Positions 1,072-50,709 of a DNA stretch of 50,709 nt are shown piece after piece (position 1 is the first letter of the stretch; each line of letters starts with the position of its first letter). The position numbers were made by a program, and so were the translations under genes. The notes under the pieces are model-generated. The model was given only the letters and a program-made list of their open reading frames with translations, had not been told where the DNA came from and made no database searches. Source of the DNA: Escherichia phage vojen. The stretch lies in sequence record NC_049824.1. One strand, given 5' to 3'.

Positions 1072-1134
1072 CTTACCGTCTCCTGATTGGTGTCTCGTTT
1101 CGATGCGTGTAATGTACCCGATCAGGCTGATTCA

Positions 1135-2477: not shown

Positions 2478-2497
2478 ATAGCACTTTTTGTTAAAAC
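2478..2497 (+). promoter_or_regulatory. Conserved 20-bp element ATAGCACTTTTTGTTAAAAC
   Basis: Exact motif; followed by inverted repeat CCAGG...CCTGG and CATAAT at an 18-bp gap. Confidence 0.55.
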
Positions 2498-2553
2498 GCC
2501 AGGTGCGAATCCTGGCATAATAGCCTCATCGAAACGAGATTGAGGAAAACAAA

Positions 2554-5903: not shown

Positions 5904-6494
5904 ATGAAACGCGACATTATCATCCTTAACGGACCGCCAGGGGTTGGCAAAGGCACGCTTGCAGCATACTTAACGGGCCATCGTTACGCAGCCGTTAAAG
6001 CGTCGTTTAAACAGCCTATGTTTGATATTGCATTCTCCATGCTTGGCGTTTACCGATATGACGAATTCATTGATCTGTATAACGACCTCGAGCAGAAAGA
6101 AAAGCCTCAAGCAATCTTGCAAGGCAAGTCGCCTCGCCAGTTCATGATCTGGATTAGCGAAGAAGTTATGAAGCCAGCTTTTGGCGAGCAATATTTCGGA
6201 AATCGCATGGTTGAGCAAGTACACGAGATGTACAGAGATTTAGCTGTTGTAATTAGTGACGGCAGATTCCCTGAAGAAATCAAGCCGCTAGTTAAGGCAG
6301 GCCATGAAGTGCACATTTGCCGACTGCATCGCGAAGGCTTCACGTTTGATGGTGATTCACGAAACTATATTGACCTGAGCGGATACCATCACCGCGTAAA
6401 ACATTACGACTTCACAATGATTGATGGCGATCCAGAAAAGACTGTTGACGAGATCATCAAAACGGTCCAGTGGAAACACATTAAGATCAAATAG
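5904..6494 (+). CDS. P-loop nucleotide/polynucleotide kinase
   Basis: GPPGVGKGT Walker A close to the start; start moved to ATG with GGAG RBS; TAG stop lies inside the next motif copy. Confidence 0.55.
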   Translation: MKRDIIILNGPPGVGKGTLAAYLTGHRYAAVKASFKQPMFDIAFSMLGVYRYDEFIDLYNDLEQKEKPQAILQGKSPRQFMIWISEEVMKPAFGEQYFGNRMVEQVHEMYRDLAVVISDGRFPEEIKPLVKAGHEVHICRLHREGFTFDGDSRNYIDLSGYHHRVKHYDFTMIDGDPEKTVDEIIKTVQWKHIKIK

Positions 6495-6510
6495 CACGAA
6501 TTGCTAAAAG
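6491..6510 (+). promoter_or_regulatory. Conserved element, variant ATAGCACGAATTGCTAAAAG
   Basis: Variant motif overlapping the kinase stop; TATAAT (6529-6534) at an 18-bp gap after an imperfect dyad. Confidence 0.45.
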
Positions 6511-6564
6511 CGGGGCGCAATGCCTCGCTATAATGCAAACACCAATCAAAGAGAGGACTTGAAC

Positions 6565-7858: not shown

Positions 7859-7914
7859 TTCCGCGAGGGCATTTGTTAAAGTGTCCTCATTGAAGCGAAA
7901 CAGAGGAAATCAAA

Positions 7915-8127: not shown

Positions 8128-8375
8128 TCACGATTAACCTTTCAGAAGAACAAGCAAAGAAACTCCTGCATGCTGTAGGTTCTCGTGCACTTTGCGGATC
8201 AACTGATGAAATGATGATTGATCATGATGTTGCAAGAGAGCTTTTTACTCAGCTTGAGCAAAAATTCTCACCACGTCCGACTGACGCGGCAGAAACTGCA
8301 AAATGGCTTGCTGAGAATGGATACACGGCTTTAAAAGTTCACAACTGGAAGCGAAAGCGCAAAAAAGACTGTTGA
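8124..8375 (+). CDS. hypothetical protein (83 aa)
   Basis: Start moved to ATG overlapping the upstream stop. Confidence 0.45.
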   Translation: MITINLSEEQAKKLLHAVGSRALCGSTDEMMIDHDVARELFTQLEQKFSPRPTDAAETAKWLAENGYTALKVHNWKRKRKKDC

Positions 8376-14209: not shown

Positions 14210-15322
14210 ATGAAGGCAAAACAAAGATTTGATAGCGTCCAGGTTAAGGCGCATTTTGATGATAATGGATTTTTAGTGGATCGCCCAATTGTGGCGCGAA
14301 TTGGTTTGCAGGAGTACCGCACACCGTATGGAATCAGACGAGAGTTCCGACCAGCGTCAGAGGTATTTAAGGCTGATTCGCTTGCTACGTTCGCAGGCAA
14401 GCCGATCACTATCGGTCACGTCACGGTAACGCCAGACAATGCGGATCAGGTTGTTGTTGGTTCATGCGCTGGCGCTGGTGTTCCAAATGGTATTGGCGTT
14501 GAAGTTCCGTTAAGCATTTACTCAAAGCGAGCAATTGAGAGCGCAAAAAAGAAAGACACGGCGGAAATTTCAGTTGGTTACACATCGGTTGATATTGACA
14601 AGCCAGGCTGGGGTAATAATAAAACCGGAGATTACTTGTTTGAGGAAGACCTAAATGAAGACTGGAAGCCTGATTCTCCTGATTGGGTTAAATTTGACGC
14701 CATTCAGACGAATATCCGCGTTAATCACATTGCACTTGTCTTTCGTGGTCGTGCTGGCATTGCCAAATTAAATCTTGATAGTGAACAGGATTTTCCGTAT
14801 AGTGACGAGGTTCTAAATGACAAAGGAGATGAGGAAATGACAGTAAAAATTAAACTTGATGGCGCGGTAGAATTTGATGTTCCAAAGGCCGTTGCAGATC
14901 ACATCGAGGCGCTAAAGGCTGATGCAAAAGCTGCAACCGAAAAAGCTGATGGCCTTGAGGCCGAGCGCGACGCCCTGAAAACTAAAGTTGATGGCATTCC
15001 TGCGCAGATTGCAGAAGCTGTTAAGAAGGCAAAGACTGACGCAGAAGAACATGCCAAGCTGGTTGCAGATGCAACTGAAATTGGCATCAAGTGTGACGGC
15101 TTGGACGCTAAAGCGATCAAGGTTGCTTACGTCAAAGAAGTCACTGGCGCTGATATTTCAGAAAAAGCCGATGCATATATTGAAACAGCTTTTGACCTTG
15201 CGAAGCAGTCTGATAAAATGGCGGCGCAGCGTAAATCTGTTAAGGGCTATTCTTTCGGGTCTGGCAAGAGTGAAAAAACCGACTCCCTTGATCCGACTGC
15301 GCGTTTGAAAAAACTTAAATAA
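14210..15322 (+). CDS. putative prohead protease / scaffolding protein
   Basis: 370 aa; Ala/Lys/Glu-rich coiled-coil-like C-terminal half; sits between head-morphogenesis and capsid genes. Confidence 0.5.
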   Translation: MKAKQRFDSVQVKAHFDDNGFLVDRPIVARIGLQEYRTPYGIRREFRPASEVFKADSLATFAGKPITIGHVTVTPDNADQVVVGSCAGAGVPNGIGVEVPLSIYSKRAIESAKKKDTAEISVGYTSVDIDKPGWGNNKTGDYLFEEDLNEDWKPDSPDWVKFDAIQTNIRVNHIALVFRGRAGIAKLNLDSEQDFPYSDEVLNDKGDEEMTVKIKLDGAVEFDVPKAVADHIEALKADAKAATEKADGLEAERDALKTKVDGIPAQIAEAVKKAKTDAEEHAKLVADATEIGIKCDGLDAKAIKVAYVKEVTGADISEKADAYIETAFDLAKQSDKMAAQRKSVKGYSFGSGKSEKTDSLDPTARLKKLK

Positions 15323-15893: not shown

Positions 15894-16328
15894 ATGAGTG
15901 ATTATTCAGTCATTGTTGGCGTTGAGTCGCCAGGGTGCATGGTCGATTCTTCAATAATGGTGATTAACGGATCTTTCGTGTGCGGAGATGAATTTATTGC
16001 GCCAGGTAAGATTGTGCGACTATCACATACAACAAATGGATACAAAATAGCCAGTATTAATGGGGGTCTTGTTATTGGCGTGGCAGTAAGGCCGCCGGAC
16101 TCGTGCATATATGAGGAGGGTGATCCAGTTAATGTGGTTAGTAGAGGTAGTGTGTGGTGCTTAACTTCTGAGAGCGAAGCGCCAGAATATGGAGATAAAG
16201 TATTTGTAACGCAAGATGGAGATGCGGCATACAGTGAAGGCGACTTGCTGATTGGTTGGATCTTTACTGGCGAACATGTAAAGGTTGATCATGATTCATA
16301 TATTGTCGGGGTAAGCATTAACGCATAA
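15894..16328 (+). CDS. putative structural protein (paralog 2)
   Basis: Start moved to ATG with GGAG RBS; paralogous to 15335..15847. Confidence 0.45.
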   Translation: MSDYSVIVGVESPGCMVDSSIMVINGSFVCGDEFIAPGKIVRLSHTTNGYKIASINGGLVIGVAVRPPDSCIYEEGDPVNVVSRGSVWCLTSESEAPEYGDKVFVTQDGDAAYSEGDLLIGWIFTGEHVKVDHDSYIVGVSINA

Positions 16329-16345
16329 CACAAAATTATGTTGCA

Positions 16346-16365
16346 CGTTTAACAAAAAATGCTAT
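16346..16365 (-). promoter_or_regulatory. Conserved element, inverted relative to the downstream plus-strand gene
   Basis: Plus strand reads TTTAACAAAAAATGCTAT; orientation is opposite to the canonical arrangement. Confidence 0.4.
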
Positions 16366-16411
16366 CATTGGGGCGTTACATACTAACAGCCTTTATATAT
16401 GGAGGAAGAAA

Positions 16412-17386
16412 ATGGAAAAAGAAAAATTTGATCAGCTAGATGCGGATATTGTTTCTAGCTATCTGGCTACTCGCGGCGTTAAAGGTGATGCGTCCGATAT
16501 GGGTATCTGGACGGCGCAAGAGCTTCACAAGATCCGCTCAACTGCTTACGAGAAAGAGTATCCGGCAGGTTCTGCGCTTCGTGTGTTCCCTGTAACTAAT
16601 GAGCTTTCTGATACTGATAAAACTTTTGAATACCAGATGTTTGATAAGGTTGGTTACGCAAAAATTATTGCTGATTACACCGACGACCTGCCGACCGTTG
16701 ACGCGCTGATGTCCAGCGAATTCGGTAAAGTGTTCCGCTTGGGTAACGCGTTCTTGATCTCAATTGACGAAATCAAGGCTGGTCAGCGCACTGGTAAGAG
16801 CCTTTCCACTCGCAAGGCAAACGCAGCGCAAAACGCTCATGATCAGGAAGTTAACCGCCTGGTGTTTAAGGGTTCAAAGCCGCATAAGATTCTTTCGGTG
16901 TTTGAACATCCTAACCTGACAAAGATCGTGTCTTCTGGCTGGTTAAGTGCTGATGAAAACACTAAGTTCCCGCAGTCAGCATCTGATGAACTGGAAAAGG
17001 CTATTGAAACCATTCAGACCATCACCAATGGTCAGCACCGCGCAACCAATATCCTGATTCCGCCGTCTATGCGCAAGGTTCTTTCCGTTCGAATGGAAAA
17101 CACCACTGAAAGTTATCTGGAATACTTCCAGAAACAAAACAGCGGAATCACCATCGACTCAATCGCAGAGCTTGAGGATATTGATGGCACTGGAACGAAA
17201 GGTTGTCTGGTATATGAGAAAGACCCAATGAATATGTCTATCGAAATTCCAGAAGCATTCAACATGCTTCCGGCGCAACCAAAAGATCTGCATTTCAAAG
17301 TTCCGTGCACTTCAAAATGTACTGGCCTGACGATTTACCGTCCGTTTACGCTAGTGCTTATTACTGGCTTGAAAAAATCAGGTTAA
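16412..17386 (+). CDS. major capsid protein
   Basis: 324-aa ORF with strong RBS, followed by a strong terminator; position in the head module. Confidence 0.65.
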   Translation: MEKEKFDQLDADIVSSYLATRGVKGDASDMGIWTAQELHKIRSTAYEKEYPAGSALRVFPVTNELSDTDKTFEYQMFDKVGYAKIIADYTDDLPTVDALMSSEFGKVFRLGNAFLISIDEIKAGQRTGKSLSTRKANAAQNAHDQEVNRLVFKGSKPHKILSVFEHPNLTKIVSSGWLSADENTKFPQSASDELEKAIETIQTITNGQHRATNILIPPSMRKVLSVRMENTTESYLEYFQKQNSGITIDSIAELEDIDGTGTKGCLVYEKDPMNMSIEIPEAFNMLPAQPKDLHFKVPCTSKCTGLTIYRPFTLVLITGLKKSG

Positions 17387-17398
17387 TCGTATAACATT

Positions 17399-17428
17399 GG
17401 GGAATCCTTAACTGGATTCCCTTTTTTA
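17399..17428 (+). terminator. Rho-independent terminator
   Basis: GGGGAATCC-TTAACT-GGATTCCC hairpin followed by TTTTTTATT. Confidence 0.85.
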
Positions 17429-17442
17429 TTGGAGGTTATGAA

Positions 17443-17715
17443 ATGGCTAAAGAAAAAACTGTAACGCTAAAGGTTTCCGGCGTATGCCTTATCATTGTTG
17501 ATGGTGAGCATTATCATCCAGGCAAAGAGTTTGACGTAGAAGAATCAAAGTTGAAAACAAGCGCGTTTGAATATCTAATTGCAAAAGGCGATCTGGAGGT
17601 TAAAGATAACTCCGCATTGAACGAAGAAATCAAACAGAGCGCAGCAAGCAAACGTAAAAAAGACCCGCGAGAGGGTAAGAGCAAGGCCGAACTCGAAGAC
17701 GGCGGCATCTATTAA
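17443..17715 (+). CDS. hypothetical structural protein (90 aa)
   Basis: ORF with GGAGG RBS downstream of the capsid gene. Confidence 0.5.
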   Translation: MAKEKTVTLKVSGVCLIIVDGEHYHPGKEFDVEESKLKTSAFEYLIAKGDLEVKDNSALNEEIKQSAASKRKKDPREGKSKAELEDGGIY

Positions 17716-17762
17716 TAAAGAGGGCGCTATAAGCGCCCTTTGTCATATCTGGAGGAAATAAA

Positions 17763-18179
17763 ATGGTTGATGAATTTTTCACTGACGCAGAAATCACGCA
17801 GCAAATCGTGAAATTGGCGCCACCGATGAAGCAGATTGATCCAGATTTAATGGCGGCATGGATTGATCTTGCAAAGGAATTTGTTTGCAAGAAGCGGTTT
17901 AAAGAATCATATCCCAAAGCGGTTGCTCTTTATACGTTGCACCTTATGACGCTTGACGGAGCAATGAAGCAAGAAGGGGAAAGCGTAGAGAGTTACTCGC
18001 GGCGCGTGGCGTCATTTTCCCTGACTGGTGAATTTAGCCAGACTTTTGATCGAGTGTCAGGCGACTATGGCGGAAAAGAGATCAGGCAAACTCCGTGGGG
18101 TAAAATGTATGAAACGTTAAATCGCAAAAAAGGCGGCGGATTTGGCCTTGTGACTGGATTTAGGAGACGTTGCAAATGA
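17763..18179 (+). CDS. putative head-tail connector / adaptor
   Basis: Position and size in the neck region; GGAGGAAA RBS. Confidence 0.4.
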
Positions 18180-18547
18180 ACTATAACGAGATCGCAAGAA
18201 TGGCAACTGAAGGAATAAACTTCTTCAGTGATGGCAACGGTGAGTTTAAGTGCATAACGCAGCGAGGAAGCGTTGAAATCGTCGGAGGTGAAGAAGTAGA
18301 AAAGCCAGAGATTAGCGTAATGATTAAAGGTTTAATTCGATCCCCAAAATTACGCGAGGTTGACGGCGAGGCAATACGAGTAACCGATAAGTTGGGAGTT
18401 TTTAACAATAAAGTTGAAATTAAGAACGGGTATCATATTGATGTTGATGGTGAATTATATGTTGTAGTTGAAGCAAGACCAATCAGACAAACCAATGTCA
18501 CTGTTGCTTATCGGCCTATTTTGAGAAGGATTTCCGTACATGGCTAA
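18176..18547 (+). CDS. putative head closure / neck protein
   Basis: ATGA overlap with upstream gene; GGAGA RBS. Confidence 0.4.
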
Positions 18548-18983
18548 AAACTACACGATAAGGGAATTTCACGGCAACATTGATGCGTGGATAAATGCCG
18601 TTGATAGTGGACTAAAAGATTGCGTGGAGTTGTTCGCCGAAAAAGTACACACAGATTTGGTTAAGCGTTCTCCGGTAGATACTGGTCGTTACCGTGCAAA
18701 CTGGCAGGTAACAGCAAACAAGCCGCCATTGTATGCGCTTAATCAGTACGATAAGCACGGAGACAAAACTATCGCGGAAGGTAAGCGAGCCATATACGCA
18801 ATGTTACGAGGTGGCGGCGCAGTAAGGGCCATTTATTTTTCAAATATGCTTATTTACGCTAACGCGCTTGAGTACGGTCATTCAAAACAAGCGCCAGCGG
18901 GTGTACTTGGGATTGTCGCGGTTAAGTTGAGATCTTATATGGCTGAAGCAATAAAAGAGTCGAGGGCTAAAAATGCACTATGA
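18540..18983 (+). CDS. putative neck protein (HK97 gp10-like)
   Basis: Contains TGRYRANWQ-like segment; overlapping start. Confidence 0.4.
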   Translation: MAKNYTIREFHGNIDAWINAVDSGLKDCVELFAEKVHTDLVKRSPVDTGRYRANWQVTANKPPLYALNQYDKHGDKTIAEGKRAIYAMLRGGGAVRAIYFSNMLIYANALEYGHSKQAPAGVLGIVAVKLRSYMAEAIKESRAKNAL

Positions 18984-19371
18984 ATTAATGCTATCGGCGC
19001 GTAAGGCGCTGGCGACTGAATACGAAAGCAGATTCAAGATCGCTTATGAAAACGTAGAGTTTACGCCACCTGGTGACGGTTCTCCGTGGTTGAAGTTTGA
19101 CTATGCCGAAGTTGATACAGAATACTTGTCATTGGATCGAAAATGCGTTTCCTATATCGGAATGATTCAGGTTGGCATTGTGTTTCCACCAGGTTACGGA
19201 ACTGACAGGCCGCGCGTTCTCGCTAAAGAGATTGCGCAATTCTTTTACGATGGTAAAATGTTGGAGCATGGTTATATATATGAGGGTGCAAGAGTTCACA
19301 AGCCGCTCAAGAGTGAAAGCGGATGGCTTCTCCCAATAAGATTTTATGTTCGAATTGAAACAAAGGAGTAA
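18973..19371 (+). CDS. putative tail terminator / completion protein
   Basis: 132-aa ORF immediately upstream of the major tail protein gene. Confidence 0.4.
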   Translation: MHYELMLSARKALATEYESRFKIAYENVEFTPPGDGSPWLKFDYAEVDTEYLSLDRKCVSYIGMIQVGIVFPPGYGTDRPRVLAKEIAQFFYDGKMLEHGYIYEGARVHKPLKSESGWLLPIRFYVRIETKE

Positions 19372-19376
19372 AAATT

Positions 19377-20039
19377 ATGCATTTACCAAATGGATCGCAA
19401 ATTTTCGTTGAGAGCAATCGCGGAGACGCTATTGAAGCAACGGCAGTATCAAACGCTAAAGATCCTGTATTCACCGTTGCATCTGGCGGCACTGCGTACA
19501 AGAAAGGTGATTATGTGATCATCACTGCGTCTTCTTGGGGCAAGCTGATTGATCGTGTTATGCGTGTAAAGGCTAACGGTGAAGAAACAAGCGTGACTCT
19601 TGAAGGTGTAGATACTACTGATCAGAACGTTTTTCCGTCTGGCGGTACTGCATCTTTTGCCAAAATTGATGCATGGACTGAGATCCCTTGCGTTCAAGAT
19701 TTGTCGCAGGACGGCGGCGAACAGCAATACTACACTTATCAGTGTTTGGCAGACGATCAGGAACAGCAGTTACCTACCTATAAGAGCGCCGTTTCTCTTA
19801 CCTACACTTTTGCGCACGAATACGATAACGCGATCTATCCGTTACTTCGTGCAGCAGATGAATCCGGCGCTGTAACGGCGCTTCGTATGTATGTACCAAA
19901 AGCAAAAGAGATGCGTTGCTGGGCTGGTGTACTTTCATTTAACGAGATCCCACAAACGACCGTTAACGAAATGGAAACCGTTTCCCTGTCTGTATCCCTG
20001 AAAGGTCGATTCACCTTCCTACCTTCTCAAGTAGCATAA
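19377..20039 (+). CDS. major tail protein
   Basis: 220-aa ORF upstream of the G/GT chaperones and tape measure, followed by a strong terminator. Confidence 0.65.
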   Translation: MHLPNGSQIFVESNRGDAIEATAVSNAKDPVFTVASGGTAYKKGDYVIITASSWGKLIDRVMRVKANGEETSVTLEGVDTTDQNVFPSGGTASFAKIDAWTEIPCVQDLSQDGGEQQYYTYQCLADDQEQQLPTYKSAVSLTYTFAHEYDNAIYPLLRAADESGAVTALRMYVPKAKEMRCWAGVLSFNEIPQTTVNEMETVSLSVSLKGRFTFLPSQVA

Positions 20040-20045
20040 TCACAA

Positions 20046-20067
20046 GGGGCGTTGCGCCCCTTTTTTT
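20046..20067 (+). terminator. Rho-independent terminator
   Basis: GGGGCG-TTG-CGCCCC hairpin followed by TTTTTTT. Confidence 0.85.
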
Positions 20068-20106
20068 GTTACTGTACAATCAAGCTACACGATTCATAAT
20101 CAATTC

Positions 20107-20125
20107 TTTTAACAAAAAGTGCTAT
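20107..20125 (-). promoter_or_regulatory. Conserved element, inverted relative to the downstream plus-strand gene
   Basis: Plus strand reads TTTTAACAAAAAGTGCTAT immediately before the RBS of the tail chaperone gene. Confidence 0.45.
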
Positions 20126-20138
20126 CAAGGAGAAAGAA

Positions 20139-20456
20139 ATGTCAAAAATGAAATTGACGATTGGGCCGCTTCCTGACTTTAAATTACCAGTGAAATTTGC
20201 AATTCCTAACGGAGAAGATCAAACAATTATCTTCACAGTTCGCCACCGCAAAACAAGTGAGATTCACGAGCGCTACACGTCAGATACTCCAATGAGCGAT
20301 GTTGAAATGATCACCTTCCTTGCTTCCGGTTGGAATCTTGATGATGAATTTAACGAAGAAAATATTAAACAGCTTCTTGATTACTACCCAGCGACAGCAA
20401 TCGGATTAACTAGCGCATACATGAAAGCGCTTGCGGGGCAGCGAGTAAAAAACTAA
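20139..20456 (+). CDS. tail assembly chaperone (gpG-like)
   Basis: 105-aa ORF between major tail and tape measure; ends at slippery A_AAA_AAC. Confidence 0.6.
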   Translation: MSKMKLTIGPLPDFKLPVKFAIPNGEDQTIIFTVRHRKTSEIHERYTSDTPMSDVEMITFLASGWNLDDEFNEENIKQLLDYYPATAIGLTSAYMKALAGQRVKN

Positions 20457-20767
20457 AAAGGGCGGTTTACCTGTTTTATCAGAAACCGCCGACAGATGCA
20501 GAGCTTGAGGCCGTTGGCCTTACAAGGGCAGACTATGAAGGAGAAGATCCGCCAGAGGTTATATTTGATGAAAGCATGATGCAATCATGGGATATATTTT
20601 GCGCAATGCAAACGCAATGGAGATGTTCTGGCGGTGGCGCTTACGGATTTGATTATAATGTCTTGCCTATGCTTTTTGAGATTTACAAGGTTGAGGATCG
20701 CGAGATGGCGCTAAACGACTTGCGAATCATGGAGCAAAAAGCACTTGAAATGATGCATTCAAAATAA
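20139..20767 (+). CDS. tail assembly chaperone GT fusion via programmed -1 frameshift
   Basis: Slippery heptamer AAAAAAC at 20447-20453; the -1 frame is open through to the 20576..20767 ORF. Confidence 0.5.
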
Positions 20768-20789
20768 GCGCCTACGGGCGCTTTTTTAT
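20767..20789 (+). terminator. Rho-independent terminator
   Basis: AGCGCC-TACG-GGCGCT hairpin followed by TTTTTTATT. Confidence 0.75.
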
Positions 20790-20806
20790 TACCTGGAGGA
20801 TTAATA

Positions 20807-23479
20807 ATGTCAGAACAATACGCAGGCTTGACGCTTGGGGTTGACGTTTCTCAACTCAACAATGCTGTAAAGTCTTTGCAGCAATTCAAGAAGGCAAACG
20901 ACGACGCAAAGGGAAGCGTTGAGAGTTTTGTTGATTCAGAGGTTGTTGCAAGACAAAGAGCCAAACAACTTGCTGAGGAATTGGCAAAGCAGAAGCAAGA
21001 ATTTAAAGCAATTCAGTCGGCAATAGATCCGACAGCAAGCAAAATGGATAAGTTGCGCCAGGCTGCGACACAGCTTGATGCGCTTTGGAAAAAAGGAATT
21101 GTTCCTGATGACACATTCTTTGAGTTAGGATCAATTCTTGAGACGCAGCAAAATAAACTGATCGCAACTAAAAAGGCGCTAACTGAAGAAGGCCGCGCGG
21201 CTCTTGAGGAAGCAAAAAATAAGGCAAGAGCAGAGGCTGAGGCAAGAAAGTTCATTGCGGCATTGCAGGCGCAAGCTGACGCAGCGGAAAAAACAAAGTC
21301 AGAGCTTGTCGAAATGAGAGCCGCACAACTTGGAGTTAGTGCAGAGGCCGCGCCATTTATTGCAAAAATGAAGGAGCAGGAAAAACAAGCCTCAAAACTT
21401 GGCGTTTCTATGGGGCAGTACAAGCAAGCAATGGCGCAATTGCCAATGCAGATCACTGACGTTGTTACTTCTCTTGCTTCAGGAATGCCAGTATGGATGA
21501 TCGCAATCCAGCAGGGCGGGCAAATCAAGGACTCATTCGGCGGTGTTGCTAATACGTTTAAAGCGCTAATGACATTTGTCACGCCTTTAAGTGTAGGGAT
21601 GACGGCGCTGACTGGTGCTCTTGGTTATGCTGCATATAATGCATACAAAGCAAATGCACAACTGAAGGAGATCACAAAAACCGTTCAGGAGGCAACTGGT
21701 CTTTCAGGTGAGTTTGCAGAGCGGATCGCAACTGGAATCCAGGCGCTATCTGACAAGACAGGTGAGAGCGCCGATAATCTGGCAAAGGCATACATAAGCA
21801 CTAAGGATGGAGCAACCGAGGCCATACAAAAACTCGTCGATGTTGGGTTTACCTATGACGAAGCAAAGGTAAAGGTAAACGAATACAAGAATGCATCAAG
21901 TTTTGTAAGTCTCAACAATGAGATTGCTGATCACAAAAACAAGGTTCTTGAGCTTGGCGATTCGTGGTATGAAGTCTTAAAAGCGAAGAATGATTATGCT
22001 TCACCGTCCGGCGGGCTGTTGGGGAAAGAGCTTGGTTATGTAAATCCTATGCTGCAATTTGCGAAGAACACCTATGAGGATATAGGAAAGATTGTAAAAG
22101 ATGCGAATAAGGATATGGCGGAACGAGCAGCACGCATCGACAGAGAAAACCTTTCCTTAAACAGAGTTCGAGCGGCGCAAGAGGCTTTAAACAAAGCCAT
22201 AGAGGATCAGAAGAACGTAGCAAGGACAGCAGACGAAGAGTTGAAAAAGCGCGCGGCTGAGAACGTGGAGTTCAGGCGAAAAGAGCTTGAAGAGGCGAAG
22301 AAGGCGCAGCAGCAAAAGGAAAAAGTTGGTGGAGTTGTAAAAGCACCAACAGAGCAGCTTGATAAGGAGCTATATGTTCTCAAGGCGCAACTTGAAACGC
22401 TGAAAGAGCACCGAACTGTAAATGATGTTATTTCACGCCAGAGGCAATCTTTGTGGAGCATTGAAAAGCAGATCCAGATCCTGGAGGAAGCGCAAAGCAA
22501 ACGCAAGCTGACAAAGGCTGAACAGGCGTTACTAAACGAGCAAAAAGCAGTTATTGCTATGGCAAAAGAAAAGGCCGAGATAGGCGATCAGATTGTTTTG
22601 CAACAAAGAAAGAACAAGCAATACCAGGAAGGGCTTAAATTCATTCAGCAAACATCAGATGCTATTGACGCTATGAACTTGCGACAGTCTGGAGCTACAG
22701 ATCTGCAAATCCAGCGAGAGCTTGAGTTGAAGAAGTTGCGAACTGATTATGTTGCTGGCGGCGGTAGTATCGACGATGAAATTTATCAGCAGATGGAAGC
22801 AAAGCTGAAAGAGTATTACGCAACTGAGGATCAACTTAGAAATAACTGGATTGCAGGAGCAAAAAACGCATGGGAGGTTTACGGACAAGATGCAATGGAT
22901 ATGTACGGCAACGTGCAAGATATTGCAAGCGAGGCGCTCAACGGTCTAACCAACCAAATGGCTACATTCCTTGCAACAGGCAAGGCAAACTTTAAGAGCT
23001 TCGCAACGTCAATCATCCAAATGATTATCCAGATGATCACGAAGATGGTTATCTTTAATGCCATATCTGGTGCGATTGGAGGTGACACTTGGACGATTGG
23101 AAGCCTTCTTAAAAATGTTGGATTTGCAACTGGTGGATACACTGGCGACGGCGGGAAGTATGAGCCAGCAGGTGTTGTTCATAAAGGCGAGTTTGTCATG
23201 ACGAAGGAGGCCACGAAGCGGATCGGAGTTGGAAACCTTTACAAAATGATGCGCGGTTATGCAAATGGCGGCGTTGTTGGCGGCACTTCATACACTGGCG
23301 GCGGCGTTTCATCAGGAGCAACAAACCTTAATATTGGTGGGATTAGCGTTGATATTAACAACGGAAACGATCCGAAGGGGTTAGAGACTGGCGTAAAAAT
23401 GATTTTCACTGATATGATTAAGCGTTCCTGTACGCAGGGTGGGGAAGTTTACGAATTTGTTATGTCTAAGCGGGGGTGA
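20807..23479 (+). CDS. tail tape measure protein
   Basis: 890 aa; extended Ala/Lys/Glu/Gln-rich coiled-coil-like sequence; hydrophobic and Gly-rich C-terminal region. Confidence 0.85.
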
Positions 23480-38956: not shown

Positions 38957-39430
38957 TTAGCAATTAGTGCTTTCAGGTTTATACAGGAATCCGCCAGGTT
39001 CATAATCTGACATTCTTACCACTCGCAACATTTCACGCTTATCACATCTCTTTGTGAGCGGTTTTCCATTGGAATCAAATCGCAGATCTGGACGGCAGAA
39101 TGAAGCGCGATAGCCTTGACAGCCATACTTTTTGTAATCGTTATGCACCTTTTGAGCGCCAGCGGCTGAAATCATACCGCGAACGCGCCACTGATTTACA
39201 GTTTGCTGGCTAACGTTAAGACGCTTTGCCATTGCTGACACGCTGCCGTAATACTCAATAAGAATGTCAAGCCGTGCTTTTAGTCCGGCGCGCACTTCAT
39301 CTTTTAAAACATAGTATCCTGTAGGGCGCTTGCGCTTTTTCTTATCTTTACCCCGTCGAGTTCCGTTATTGCCATTGATTGTGCGTTTGTCAATCTTACC
39401 AGTTGATACTGCGATTCGCTGTTCTTTCAT
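38957..39430 (-). CDS. putative DNA-binding regulator (basic N-terminus, HTH-like segment)
   Basis: KDKKKRKRP basic stretch; LNVSQQTVNQWR HTH-like segment; GGAGA RBS; start abuts a conserved element in the divergent region. Confidence 0.5.
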   Translation of the reverse strand: MKEQRIAVSTGKIDKRTINGNNGTRRGKDKKKRKRPTGYYVLKDEVRAGLKARLDILIEYYGSVSAMAKRLNVSQQTVNQWRVRGMISAAGAQKVHNDYKKYGCQGYRASFCRPDLRFDSNGKPLTKRCDKREMLRVVRMSDYEPGGFLYKPESTNC

Positions 39431-39444
39431 TATTCATTCTCCAA

Positions 39445-39464
39445 TAGCATTTTTTGTTAAACGA
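39445..39464 (+). promoter_or_regulatory. Conserved element, variant ATAGCATTTTTTGTTAAACG
   Basis: In the divergent region between the HTH gene and helicase; TATTAT at a ~16-bp gap. Confidence 0.5.
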
Positions 39465-39519
39465 TGATTTAATGATTGTGTATTATACACGCCAAATGGC
39501 ATTACTCAAAGGTTTTAGA

Positions 39520-41983: not shown

Positions 41984-41986
41984 AAC
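41967..41986 (+). promoter_or_regulatory. Conserved 20-bp element ATAGCACTTTTTGTTAAAAC
   Basis: Exact motif followed by GGCGC...GCGCC dyad and CATAAT at an 18-bp gap. Confidence 0.55.
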
Positions 41987-42044
41987 AGGCGCGAAGGATT
42001 GCGCCATAATAACACCAGTTCAACAAGCAACAGGTAATTAAGAA

Positions 42045-42990: not shown

Positions 42991-43006
42991 CACTTTTTGT
43001 TAAAAC
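42987..43006 (+). promoter_or_regulatory. Conserved 20-bp element ATAGCACTTTTTGTTAAAAC
   Basis: Exact motif followed by GCCCGG...CGGGC dyad and CATAAT at an 18-bp gap. Confidence 0.55.
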
Positions 43007-43063
43007 GCCCGGCCTTGTGTCGGGCATAATTATTTCAACGAAACAAACATGAGGAAATAAAAA

Positions 43064-48722: not shown

Positions 48723-48777
48723 CGTTTATTTCTCCTTTCGTTTCGGTGAAGTGATTATGCCAGGCTTTTACACCTGG

Positions 48778-50690: not shown

Positions 50691-50709
50691 GTTTTAACAA
50701 AAAGTGCTA
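50691..50709 (-). promoter_or_regulatory. Conserved element, truncated at window end
   Basis: Plus strand reads GTTTTAACAAAAAGTGCTA, preceded by GATGCGC...GCGCATC dyad enclosing an ATAAT-like hexamer. Confidence 0.5.

Follow-up and report, generated by a model that had tools for sequence, protein, structure and literature searches.

The genome of Escherichia phage vojen (NC_049824.1) carries a repeat, aaATAGCACnnnTTGnTAAAA, that fits the marbox, the asymmetric 20-bp binding site of MarA, SoxS, and Rob. We consider it somewhat better than an even bet that its forward copies form class II promoters while two reversed copies, ahead of the major capsid and tail-chaperone genes, restrain late promoters, and this was the best joint explanation of the repeat. 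Most likely, both reversed copies act through the same factor that activates the other promoters. The sequences show the marbox match, the geometry, and the conservation; which protein binds, the sign of its effect, and its timing we infer. In this model, one activator would turn on ~15 promoters and simultaneously hold down two late ones, and the late genes would be released once the activator became limiting, e.g., because replicating phage DNA titrates it away or because unstable MarA/SoxS decay. The repeat is the same element as the 21-nt direct repeats of phage TLS, which were published with their function left open (PMC11447400), and the model gives a testable answer to what this unexplained element does.

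The window, i.e., the whole stretch of 50,709 nt that was analyzed, is a T1-like phage (Drexlerviridae, Hanrivervirus-like), and gene identities were taken from its 97% DNA identity to the annotated Salmonella phage slyngel. It holds 17 copies of the repeat, 15 of them oriented with the downstream gene and two opposite to it (Table 1). A scan with the 20-bp motif returned 12 matches at ≤3 mismatches, far above the 0.21 expected by chance. The published 15-nt core consensus, 5'-gcannwwntgnnaaa-3' (PMC12052159), matched exactly at 19 positions versus 1.77 expected; 17 of these were true copies and two were chance intragenic matches. The same 15-mer occurred 18 times in slyngel, 20 in T1, 14 in Rtp, 19 in TLS, and 15 in the Klebsiella Webervirus cp45, where 0.3-0.7 matches would be expected. 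All 15 forward copies read ATAGCAC...TAAAA along the direction of the gene that follows and are succeeded by a -10-like hexamer and, ~55-80 nt beyond it, by the SD/start. Many phage copies also have a terminator hairpin within the spacer. In TLS, 18 intergenic copies lie ~76 nt upstream of start codons (PMC11447400).

Table 1. Marbox copies and associated promoter and terminator features in the window
Feature	Position	Strand	Remarks
Forward cores	1137, 30774, 38956, 48104, 48780, 50693	-	
Forward cores	2481, 2944, 3975, 5192, 6494, 7842, 39447, 41970, 42990	+	
Representative forward core	2481..2495	+	Layout: marbox, 20 nt, CATAAT, UTR, gene
P_MCP -35, TTGCAC	16341..16346	+	TTGnnn at 16-nt spacing in 33/33 distinct relatives
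Reversed marbox core, GCATTTTTTGTTAAA	16348..16362	-	Exact match to published 15-mer; fills P_MCP spacer, supplies TGn
P_MCP -10, TATCAT after TGc (extended -10)	16363..16368	+	TAnnnT in 33/33 distinct relatives, 5 hexamer types
Terminator-like hairpin and U-run directly 3' of P_MCP -10	16370..16393	+	Predicted start ~16375 inside 5' arm
Intrinsic terminator of major tail gene	20044..20062	+	From terminator scan; loop and 3' arm carry P_chap -35, TTGCGC, 20052-20057
P_chap -10, TACAAT (sense sigma70; chaperone and tail genes)	20075..20080	+	Present in every lineage
Antisense -10, TAGCTT	20082..20087	-	20 nt after reversed core; TAnnnT in 20/21 distinct relatives
Reversed marbox core, GCACTTTTTGTTAAA	20108..20122	-	~+21 to +35 of sense transcript; forward for antisense unit
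Dual-use marbox	39447..39461	+	Forward class II for helicase promoter, -10 TATTAT at 39481-39486

An initial annotation had described the copies before the capsid and chaperone genes as the two exceptions to an otherwise strict orientation rule. Both inversions are real, and so is the rule, since each of the other 15 copies points with a downstream gene. The dual-use copy is at the same time reversed for the divergent HTH-regulator gene (38957-39430, minus strand), where it lies in the 5' UTR and abuts the SD, downstream of a minus-strand sigma70 promoter, TTGAGT(39509-39504)-16-TATAAT(39487-39482). Since this copy is reversed for the regulator gene, there are three reversed-before-a-gene cases rather than two. 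TLS lists the equivalent promoter P57 and repeat DR11 (PMC11447400).

The motif agrees with 10/10 and 16-17/17 marbox consensus positions (20-mer consensus with 17 specified positions, quoted in PMC2453137), and 9 of 200,000 random 27-mers reached at least 16/17. The marbox centre of the forward copies, at ~-40, falls inside the class II window of -36 to -55 (PMC12052159). In E. coli micF, 20 nt separate the end of the marbox core from the -10 TAGAAT, as compared with 19-20 nt in the phage forward copies, and the 20-mers are alike (micF, ACAGCACTGAATGTCAAAAC; phage, ATAGCACTTTTTGTTAAAAC). As in the phage, the forward marbox of micF and of other class II Mar/Sox/Rob promoters (lpxC P2, lpxL P1, and rfaY P1) overlaps the -35 position, with no real -35 hexamer and a good -10. 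However, cellular marboxes are notoriously degenerate, whereas the phage has 15-20 near-consensus copies in a 50-kb virulent genome, as its main promoter class. The 15 forward copies, at the place of the -35 and 18-20 nt upstream of the -10-like hexamer, would be promoters of the Mar/Sox/Rob class II type and would drive early, replication, and accessory genes.

Such sites would be bound by a monomer of the enterobacterial AraC-family proteins MarA, SoxS, or Rob (RamA in Klebsiella), and the sequence points to these host proteins as the probable binders. No MarA-like protein encoded by the phage was detected by tblastn (all E at least 0.29 for a MarA query), and a check of 20 ORFs without a known function found no AraC-type HTH. 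In unstressed cells, little MarA and SoxS is present and Rob is largely inactive. T1-like phages grow well in the laboratory despite this, which counts against the model, as does the fact that many small phage proteins lacking a known fold could still supply the true binder. Literature searches turned up no T1-like phage with published data on binding, TSSs, or expression.

An alternative, which we regard as possible but rather unlikely, is that the motif is bound by a phage factor and that the reversed copies are its operators, one of them autoregulatory in the 5' UTR of the regulator gene. The factor could be the conserved 157-aa HTH protein or an unknown small protein; most early ORFs are without a recognisable fold. 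No transcription factor other than the HTH protein was predicted (PHROG 2856, E=3e-78; Cro/YdaS-like HTH); this protein is conserved among T1, Rtp, TLS, and cp45, and transcription of its gene passes through a reversed motif copy. However, Cro-like single-HTH proteins bind as dimers to dyad-symmetric sites, whereas the motif is an asymmetric 20-bp site. Moreover, the recognition helix varies (QQTVNQW, NQTVQGW, PQAVEEW, LKTVWGW, and IQVVQQW), also among T1, Rtp, TLS, and cp45, whereas the motif stays the same in four subfamilies. A phage binder would also make the 16-17/17 marbox match and the micF-identical spacing a coincidence, and abundant host Rob would be expected on such sites anyway. 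The stoperators of mycobacteriophage L5 offer a parallel in that they too are asymmetric repeats, and the chaperone and regulator copies likewise lie within transcribed 5' UTRs. L5 stoperators, however, need a temperate-phage repressor and act within transcription units; neither a repressor nor an integrase was evident in the phage genome, and since 15/17 copies lie at a fixed distance upstream of a -10, the phage copies are promoter elements.

The capsid copy lies in CGTTTAACAAAAAATGCTATCATT (16346-16369, + strand), and the capsid ATG, at 16412, follows 43 nt later. The copy makes up the 16-bp spacer of a sense sigma70 promoter, TTGCAC-16-TATCAT (P_MCP), and also provides its TGn; a simple consensus scan of the window missed this promoter (8/12 overall; the -35 is 3/6 versus TTGACA). 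Among relatives the -35 takes the forms TTGCAC, TTGAAC, TTGACG, TTGACC, TTGCTG, and TTGCGC, and the -10 is TATCAT, TATATT, TATTAT, or TATTCT, with a 1-nt-insertion variant that still has TATCAT. The proposal that the inverted copies read as extended -10 elements in the sense direction thus held for the capsid copy. Its marbox core spans ~-27 to -13 of the promoter and adjoins the -10; it runs backward, so that its ATAGCA end overlaps the TGn and the -10, and a bound protein would sit between the -35 and the -10. The exact backward 15-mer was found at the homologous place in 42 of 74 related loci. In most Klebsiella Weberviruses the marbox has decayed at critical positions and is evidently dispensable, while the -35 and -10 persist, and the Rtp capsid promoter (TTGCGT-16-TATAAT) has a spacer unrelated to the marbox. 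Promoter function in itself does not dictate the spacer sequence.

The hairpin that follows the -10 folds at -6.8 kcal/mol in the window, -11.6 in TLS, and -12.6 in T1, is lost (-0.4) when the RNA begins at 16374, and has stems that covary among relatives. In TLS, it is annotated as terminator T35, and the repeat preceding it, DR7 (15044..15024, negative strand), is the capsid copy (PMC11447400). On this reading, P_MCP is a strong sigma70 promoter, conserved among relatives, and the terminator it overlaps shields it from transcription arriving from upstream.

By analogy with E. coli rob and pbpG, the capsid copy most likely represses P_MCP. The capsid site resembles those of rob, pbpG, purA, and hdeA, at which the sigma70 core promoter contains a marbox and is repressed. 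At pbpG the marbox overlaps the spacer, and MarA/SoxS act as repressors; rob is likewise repressed by MarA/SoxS, and its core, AGCAAAAAATGCTATTAT, is identical at 16 of 18 positions to AACAAAAAATGCTATCAT of the window, although the phage capsid site is a full-consensus marbox and the AAA half of the rob site is poor. The exact marbox position and orientation at rob, purA, and hdeA were reportedly described by Schneiders and Levy in 2004 and 2006. The sign at P_MCP could instead be positive, since MarA bound in the core promoter of the sigma28-dependent flgBP2 (-16 to -30) activates by distorting base pairing at -11 (PMC12781870). We think it doubtful that a MarA-like protein opens P_MCP in this way and co-activates the capsid gene. 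The geometry would permit it, the marbox lying in the spacer and directly abutting the -10 as at flgBP2; in addition, the 16-bp spacer is suboptimal, the -35 is weak in the window, and in Rtp the tail genes have a marbox promoter of the forward, activating kind. However, the flgBP2 mechanism offsets a sigma28 melting defect, whereas P_MCP is of the sigma70 type with TGn and a good -10 and needs no such help, and relatives have a near-consensus -35 (TTGACG, TTGACC). The known sigma70 promoters with a marbox in the spacer, pbpG and reportedly rob, are repressed.

Repression at the capsid gene would have a counterpart of different design at the chaperone gene. Here the copy lies in CTTTTAACAAAAAGTGCTATCAAG (20106-20129, + strand) and abuts the SD (20129-20132; ATG at 20139). 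In the sense direction it gives hexamers such as TATCAA, TATAAG, TATCGG, TATTTA, and TATCAC, with TAnnnT in 0/20 relatives; a sense -35 was likewise found in 0/20, and the extended -10 proposed for this copy was not borne out. The sense promoter is instead P_chap, a family-wide sigma70 promoter overlapping the major-tail terminator. The TTGC in the terminator loop is kept despite variable stems, always 17 nt from the -10, which is TACAAT, TAAAAT, TAGAAT, TAATAT, or CATAAT across lineages, including those in which the motif is absent.

Back-to-back with P_chap, the chaperone copy is a complete class II unit that is predicted to fire antisense. The antisense -10 retains TAnnnT in 13 of 14 hexamer types, with column information of 2.0, 1.7, 0.5, 0.4, 0.4, and 2.0 bits, and it has the spacing of the forward promoters. 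The suggestion of antisense RNA therefore gained sequence support at this copy, and not at the capsid copy, where an antisense TAnnnT was present in 2/35 relatives. The conserved TA of the antisense -10 may in part be a consequence of the sense start site (T-1/A+1). The copy appears to be a class II cassette inserted backwards between the P_chap -10 and the SD. With the activator present, RNA polymerase would be drawn to the antisense promoter, whose -10 is 1 nt from the sense -10, so that its footprint would cover P_chap; antisense transcription into the major-tail terminator and gene would compete or interfere with sense late transcription. There is a precedent at lpxC, where a marbox overlaps one core promoter while activating another (PMC12052159).

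The cassette (marbox, spacer, and antisense -10, ~35-40 nt) is present or absent between close relatives and is missing in TLS, Weberviruses, and many other lineages, so that the copy is dispensable. This raises the possibility, to our minds a slim one, that it is a functionless evolutionary by-product, left by a mobile promoter cassette that inserted in reverse into a tolerant 5' UTR. Rtp carries the cassette at this locus in forward orientation, behind the major tail gene, where it would serve the chaperone genes. Marbox promoters are thus not confined to early genes, and the temporal model does not hold throughout. However, where the reversed cassette is present, the exact 15-mer and the key positions of the antisense -10 are kept while the bases between vary, and it reaches as far as T1, with 56% chaperone identity. 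The PeSL elements of T4, reportedly described by Arbiol et al. in 2010 as mobile promoter-stem-loop cassettes, are likewise repeated promoter-hairpin modules between genes, but they differ in sequence and involve no host-activator site; presence and absence among close relatives suggest mobility for the phage cassette.

The TLS paper states that all repeats lie along transcription and suggests a stoperator, enhancer, or UP element; it mentions neither marboxes nor the inversion of DR7 (PMC11447400). The initial annotation did not identify the motif as a marbox. It is very improbable that both reversed copies are sense extended -10s or an orientation-independent enhancer or UP-like element read by RNA polymerase: the capsid TGcTATCAT is truly an extended -10, and forward copies of this AT-rich motif occupy ~-52 to -32, but the chaperone copy has neither a TAnnnT nor a -35 in the sense direction and abuts the SD. 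Compared in register with the UP consensus reportedly defined by Estrem et al. in 1998, forward copies matched at only 3-7 of 14 positions. Orientation-independent action is likewise not supported, given the rigid placement of the forward copies relative to the -10 and the differing placement of the reversed ones, in a spacer and at ~+21 to +35. The invariant GCAC, like the rigid spacing, points to an oriented, sequence-specific protein.

Window positions 16000-21000 were 97% identical to Salmonella phage slyngel, the Escherichia phages PGN590, aaroes, and G29-2, and Shigella phage pSf-1. These relatives are T1-like siphoviruses (Drexlerviridae, Tempevirinae, Hanrivervirus) from a family whose hosts are all Enterobacteriaceae. 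The repeated element of vojen has the form ATAGCAC(TTT/GAA/TAA)TTG(T/C)TAAAA(C/A). At three or fewer mismatches, TTAACAAAAANTGCTATCA was observed 12 times in the window against 0.21 expected, and weaker extra copies were retrieved with a weight matrix. Fifteen copies read ATAGCAC...TAAAA toward their downstream gene, while the two that precede the capsid and chaperone genes, at 16348-16362 and 20108-20122, face the other way; both the inversion and the sequences at these sites were as given in the initial annotation.

Comparison with known regulatory sites identified the element as a marbox, the E. coli binding site of MarA, SoxS, and Rob. The ChIP-derived consensus of the Grainger laboratory, 5'-gcannwwntgnnaaa-3', is non-palindromic and oriented (PMC12052159), and each of the 17 true copies, the two reversed ones among them, fits this core at 10/10 specified positions. 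The window contains 19 exact core matches, 17 of them ATAGCA-type and 2 intragenic, versus 1.77 expected; matches numbered 18 in slyngel, 20 in T1, 14 in Rtp, 19 in TLS, and 15 in the Klebsiella Webervirus cp45, where 0.3-0.7 were expected. Against the asymmetric 20-bp consensus A(notG)RGCACRWWNNRYYAAA(notG)N (Martin & Rosner 2002, quoted in PMC2453137), copies of the GAA class scored 17/17, those of the TTT and TAA classes and the chaperone copy 16/17, and the capsid copy 15/17, while only 9 of 200,000 random 27-mers reached a score of at least 16 at any offset or orientation. Known E. coli sites conform to this pattern: the mar marbox in forward orientation is ATGCCACGTTTTGCTAAATC and that of micF is ACAGCACTGAATGTCAAAAC. 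By sequence and geometry, the phage motif is a marbox, and we infer that MarA, SoxS, Rob, or RamA, the Klebsiella counterpart, would bind it.

Each of the 15 forward copies is followed, 19-20 nt past the 15-nt core, by a -10-like hexamer (TAnnnT in 10, CATAAT in 4, and AATAAT in 1) and, ~55-80 nt past the core, by a Shine-Dalgarno sequence (SD) and start codon. When the start was predicted 7 nt after the -10 hexamer, the cores of these copies, and of an antisense unit at 20122->20082, fell at about -47 to -33. This is the placement of class II promoters, in which a forward marbox covers the -35 position with its center at -36 to -55 (PMC12052159). The distances match that of micF, a classical class II promoter, where the core lies 20 nt from the -10 TAGAAT and the annotated 5' end is 7 nt past that hexamer. 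The forward copies are therefore class II-type promoters as judged from both their sequence and their geometry. Two other roles were considered and rejected. An RNA-level role was set aside because each forward copy precedes its own start, and the transcript of the capsid promoter does not include the capsid copy. As UP elements, nine forward copies fit only 3-7 of the 14 specified positions when the UP consensus NNAAAWWTWTTTTNNNAAANNN was placed in register at -59 to -38.

The surroundings of these promoters showed further regularities (see the table for coordinates). In several forward promoters, the 20 nt that separate the marbox from the -10 contain GC-rich hairpins of -11 to -14.5 kcal/mol, and in TLS a hairpin of this kind carries the terminator annotation T62. 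It appears that terminators are nested with promoters in a systematic way, also at 16370-16393 and 20044-20062, so that the modules would each be insulated and restarted. The 5' UTRs after many forward promoters share cCCTCAtCGAAACGA...GAGGA, where the SD could base-pair with CCUC close to the predicted 5' end; T1, TLS, Rtp, and cp45 have this box too. Genome-wide, the 11-mer box CATCGAAACGA was not enriched (22 matches versus 17.6 expected).

Coordinates of annotated genes and predicted elements (gene assignments based on the slyngel annotation)
Feature	Position	Strand	Detail
Major head protein gene	16412-17386		
Major tail protein gene	19377-20039		
First tail-assembly chaperone gene	20139-20456		TfmS/gpG-like
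"Transcriptional regulator" gene	38957-39430	-	
Hairpin and U-run, capsid locus	16370-16393		directly after the P_MCP -10
Sense -35, chaperone locus	20052-20057		TTGCGC; terminator loop and 3' arm
Sense -10, chaperone locus	20075-20080		TACAAT; 17 nt after the -35
Regulator promoter	39509-39482	-	TTGAGT-16-TATAAT; near-consensus sigma70; P57 in TLS
Spacer hairpins	2496-2515, 6509-6528, 41985-42004, 43005-43024		differing, internally complementary stems
Shared 5'-UTR box	1095-1105(-), 2527-2537(+), 7888-7898(+), 43036-43046(+), 48738-48748(-)		

Reverse marboxes are known from class I promoters, where they lie upstream of the -35 with centers at -56 to -85 (PMC12052159); that of mar is 16 nt upstream of its -35. 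This geometry could be dismissed for both reversed copies, whose centers are at about -20 (capsid) and +28 (chaperone) from the sense starts, and a class I start 56-85 nt downstream of either would lie within coding sequence. The initial annotation had likened the sense strand of both copies to an extended -10. To evaluate the capsid copy, we compared 77 loci around capsid-gene homologues with 53-99% protein identity. The reversed copy sits at the same place in all carrier loci down to ~55% identity, and the exact backward core occurs in 42/74 loci. In the alignment, an A-tract is followed by the -35 hexamer, a spacer of 16 nt, TGn, and the -10, which is the layout of a canonical sigma70 promoter; this is the predicted promoter of the major capsid gene (P_MCP). 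In all 33 distinct sequences the -35 was TTGnnn (TTGCAC, TTGAAC, TTGACG, TTGACC, TTGCTG, or TTGCGC) and the -10 was TAnnnT (TATCAT, TATATT, TATTAT, or TATTCT), and TATCAT was intact even in two sequences with a 1-nt insertion (TGCTTATCAT). The -10 hexamer ends ~30 nt before the SD. In vojen, the marbox core lies between TTGCAC (16341-16346) and TATCAT (16363-16368), a sigma70 -35 and -10, and constitutes exactly the spacer, and its ATAGCA end contributes TGn as well as the initial bases of the -10. The capsid copy is thus the spacer of a conserved predicted sense promoter, and the extended -10 reading, with TGn, TAnnnT, and TTGnnn in 33/33, holds at this site. An antisense promoter was rejected here, since TAnnnT at the class II distance was found in just 2 of 35 sequences; the conserved TA in that register belongs to the stop codon of the upstream gene.

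Rtp has TTGCGT-16-TATAAT at the capsid promoter with an unrelated spacer, and most Weberviruses retain TTGACG/C...TATTCT with 1-3 changes at critical marbox positions. Since the promoter elements persist in these phages, P_MCP as such is predicted not to need the marbox sequence of its spacer. One Webervirus subgroup retains the exact capsid marbox. We also checked whether loss of the capsid marbox co-varies with the forward copies, and cp45 has kept 14 of the latter although its capsid marbox has decayed.

The hairpin that follows P_MCP folds with -6.8 kcal/mol in the window, -11.6 in TLS, and -12.6 in T1, and is the annotated terminator T35 of TLS. The predicted P_MCP start, ~16375, lies inside its 5' arm, and RNA beginning there does not fold (-0.4). 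Therefore, read-through from upstream should stop at the hairpin while P_MCP transcripts escape it, and capsid expression would depend on P_MCP itself. At pbpG, a marbox over the spacer causes repression (PMC12052159). The E. coli rob promoter is likewise repressed, by MarA and SoxS, and its core AGCAAAAAATGCTATTAT (K-12, 4635360-4635380, minus strand) is identical to the window's capsid core AACAAAAAATGCTATCAT at 16 of 18 positions. The marbox of rob, which Schneiders and Levy are said to have described in 2006, reportedly lies backward between the -35 and -10. The likeness of the rob and capsid cores exceeds what the marbox consensus demands.

At the chaperone copy, the extended -10 reading did not hold. 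Among 20 relatives, neither TAnnnT nor a -35 was found in any (0/20 each), and the hexamer adjoins the SD; the hexamers after TGC were TATCAA, TATAAG, TATCGG, TATTTA, TATCAC, TATTCA, TATTAG, and TATTAC. A predicted sense sigma70 promoter lies upstream of the copy, interlaced with the major-tail terminator (20044-20062), whose loop keeps TTGC while the stems differ. This promoter was found in every lineage, including those without the motif (TLS, Weberviruses, and others). Another sense promoter proposed by scanning, TGTACA-16-CATAAT (20073-20100), was not conserved in relatives. In the antisense direction, the chaperone copy forms a complete class II unit, with TAGCTT (20087->20082) 20 nt past the core. 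In this pre-specified register, the antisense -10 was TAnnnT in 20/21 distinct relatives and 13/14 hexamer types, with per-column information of 2.0, 1.7, 0.5, 0.4, 0.4, and 2.0 bits. The earlier proposal that the reversed copies could drive antisense RNAs, which failed at the capsid copy, has sequence support at this one, which is predicted to be an antisense class II-type promoter adjoining a conserved sense promoter. The two -10 hexamers are 1 nt apart, with predicted starts at ~20087 (rightward) and ~20075 (leftward) and ~12 nt between them; the promoters are therefore back-to-back, and RNA polymerase bound at one must overlap the footprint of the other. Antisense transcription would first meet the terminator hairpin, which in this direction is followed only by a weak U-tract (UUGUGAUUAU), and beyond it the 3' end of the major tail gene. 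The ~35-40-nt cassette is a clean presence/absence polymorphism among close relatives (e.g., L033 versus L028) and is missing in TLS, while in Rtp (L080, 16265-16385) it stands forward at the same locus, preceding rtp34 and the chaperone genes. This suggests that promoter cassettes move or flip as units. In all, forward marbox-type promoters occur within the structural module of Rtp at 6314, 8423, and 16301 (L080): one precedes an HNH gene, one precedes a gene for a virion protein, and one follows the major tail gene. Across the family, the motif is therefore not limited to early regions.

The sole predicted transcription factor of the phage is a 157-aa protein with a single Cro/YdaS-like helix-turn-helix (HTH), a basic N-terminus, and a Cys-rich C-terminus. 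Proteins with a single Cro-like HTH normally bind symmetric operators. The recognition helix of this regulator differs among T1, Rtp, TLS, cp45, and vojen, while the motif is invariant over these four subfamilies and over Escherichia, Salmonella, and Klebsiella hosts. A tblastn search of the window with an approximate MarA query returned no homologue (E at least 0.29), and in 20 ORFs without an assigned function, Pfam scans revealed no AraC-type HTH. Since no MarA- or AraC-type protein was found, the regulator is Cro-like, and its helix varies while the motif does not, a conserved host protein is favored as the probable binder. Small phage proteins of unknown function remain candidates as well, and we consider a phage-encoded factor improbable. 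Transcription of the regulator gene from its promoter passes through the marbox at 39447-39461, which is forward for the helicase gene that its promoter drives, and reversed for the divergent regulator gene, in whose 5' UTR it adjoins the SD. The -10 elements of the two promoters overlap with a 1-nt offset. This locus is back-to-back like the chaperone locus, but here both promoters serve genes, and it may be an autoregulatory or competitive switch.

On balance, we lean narrowly toward a mechanism that combines binding of host regulators, repression of P_MCP, antisense diversion at the chaperone locus, and late release. MarA, SoxS, Rob, or RamA would occupy the phage marboxes, and protein on the capsid marbox would repress P_MCP, as at pbpG and rob. 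Occupancy of the chaperone marbox would divert RNA polymerase to the antisense promoter, with a fall in sense initiation, and late genes would be released once the activator becomes limiting. Alternatively, the capsid copy may activate P_MCP, by analogy with the sigma28 promoter flgBP2, which MarA activates from -16 to -30 by unpairing -11 (PMC12781870); because of this precedent, the sign of regulation at P_MCP is one of two main uncertainties, the identity of the binder being the other. A broader reading, which we put forward tentatively and rate below the repression and diversion mechanism, is that Drexlerviridae transcribe mostly via host MarA, SoxS, Rob, or RamA, and that the reversed marboxes are a timer or environmental sensor. 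With 14-20 consensus marboxes per genome, the reversed ones at the capsid and tail-chaperone promoters would time the late genes, which would fire upon titration of the activator by replicating phage DNA or upon its decay after host shut-off. If so, bile salts, salicylate, or oxidative stress would affect the timing of infection. That such a timer is universal is made less likely by the forward cassette in the tail module of Rtp and by lineages that can dispense with one or the other reversed copy.

The repeat itself is already in print. The 2024 re-annotation of TLS reported 21 copies of aaATAGCACnnnTTGnTAAAA, 18 of them intergenic, noted similar repeats in T1, Rtp, and Rogue1, suggested stoperators, enhancer sites, or UP-like elements, and posed the function as an open question, while just three sigma70-like promoters were found in the genome (PMC11447400). 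Its Table S1 also gives the strand of DR7 (15044..15024, "neg"), which lies in a plus-strand gene block directly before T35 and equates to the capsid copy; the inversion is not discussed there. Within the searchable literature, no account was found of the inversion, of two different architectures, or of the motif being a marbox. Our literature searches found no papers linking marboxes to phages, T1-like ones included, and no transcriptomes, expression data, or start-site maps for T1-like phages. The elements fit known kinds, namely the class II marbox promoter and the marbox inside a core promoter, and the setting, a virulent phage family, is new. The marbox reading would give ~15 transcription units in each genome a promoter, and the candidate proteins it points to can be purchased or purified. 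It would also explain the orientation and its exceptions by E. coli rules, in which a forward marbox at -35 activates and one in the core promoter represses, and the two reversed copies would mark where capsid and tail expression are terminator-insulated and separately controlled. In this way, an explicitly posed question about the repeat becomes accessible to simple experiments. Confirmation would mean that a virulent phage family depends on the antibiotic- and stress-response regulon of its host, which would be a new kind of dependence. It could matter for treating multidrug-resistant, mar/ram-derepressed Enterobacteriaceae with phages, for how phages behave in the bile-rich gut, and for designing phage promoters that respond to Rob/MarA.

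Some of the core matches deserve separate mention. Those inside genes, at 8289-8303(+) and 19650-19664(+), fit the 15-nt pattern exactly, lack the ATA prefix, -10, and SD, and are attributed to chance, since ~1.8 such matches are expected. At the right end of the window, only 3 nt separate the boundary from an exact core at 50693-50707(-), which TATATT follows at a distance of 20 nt; the part upstream of this core is truncated, and the window boundary therefore falls inside a promoter region.
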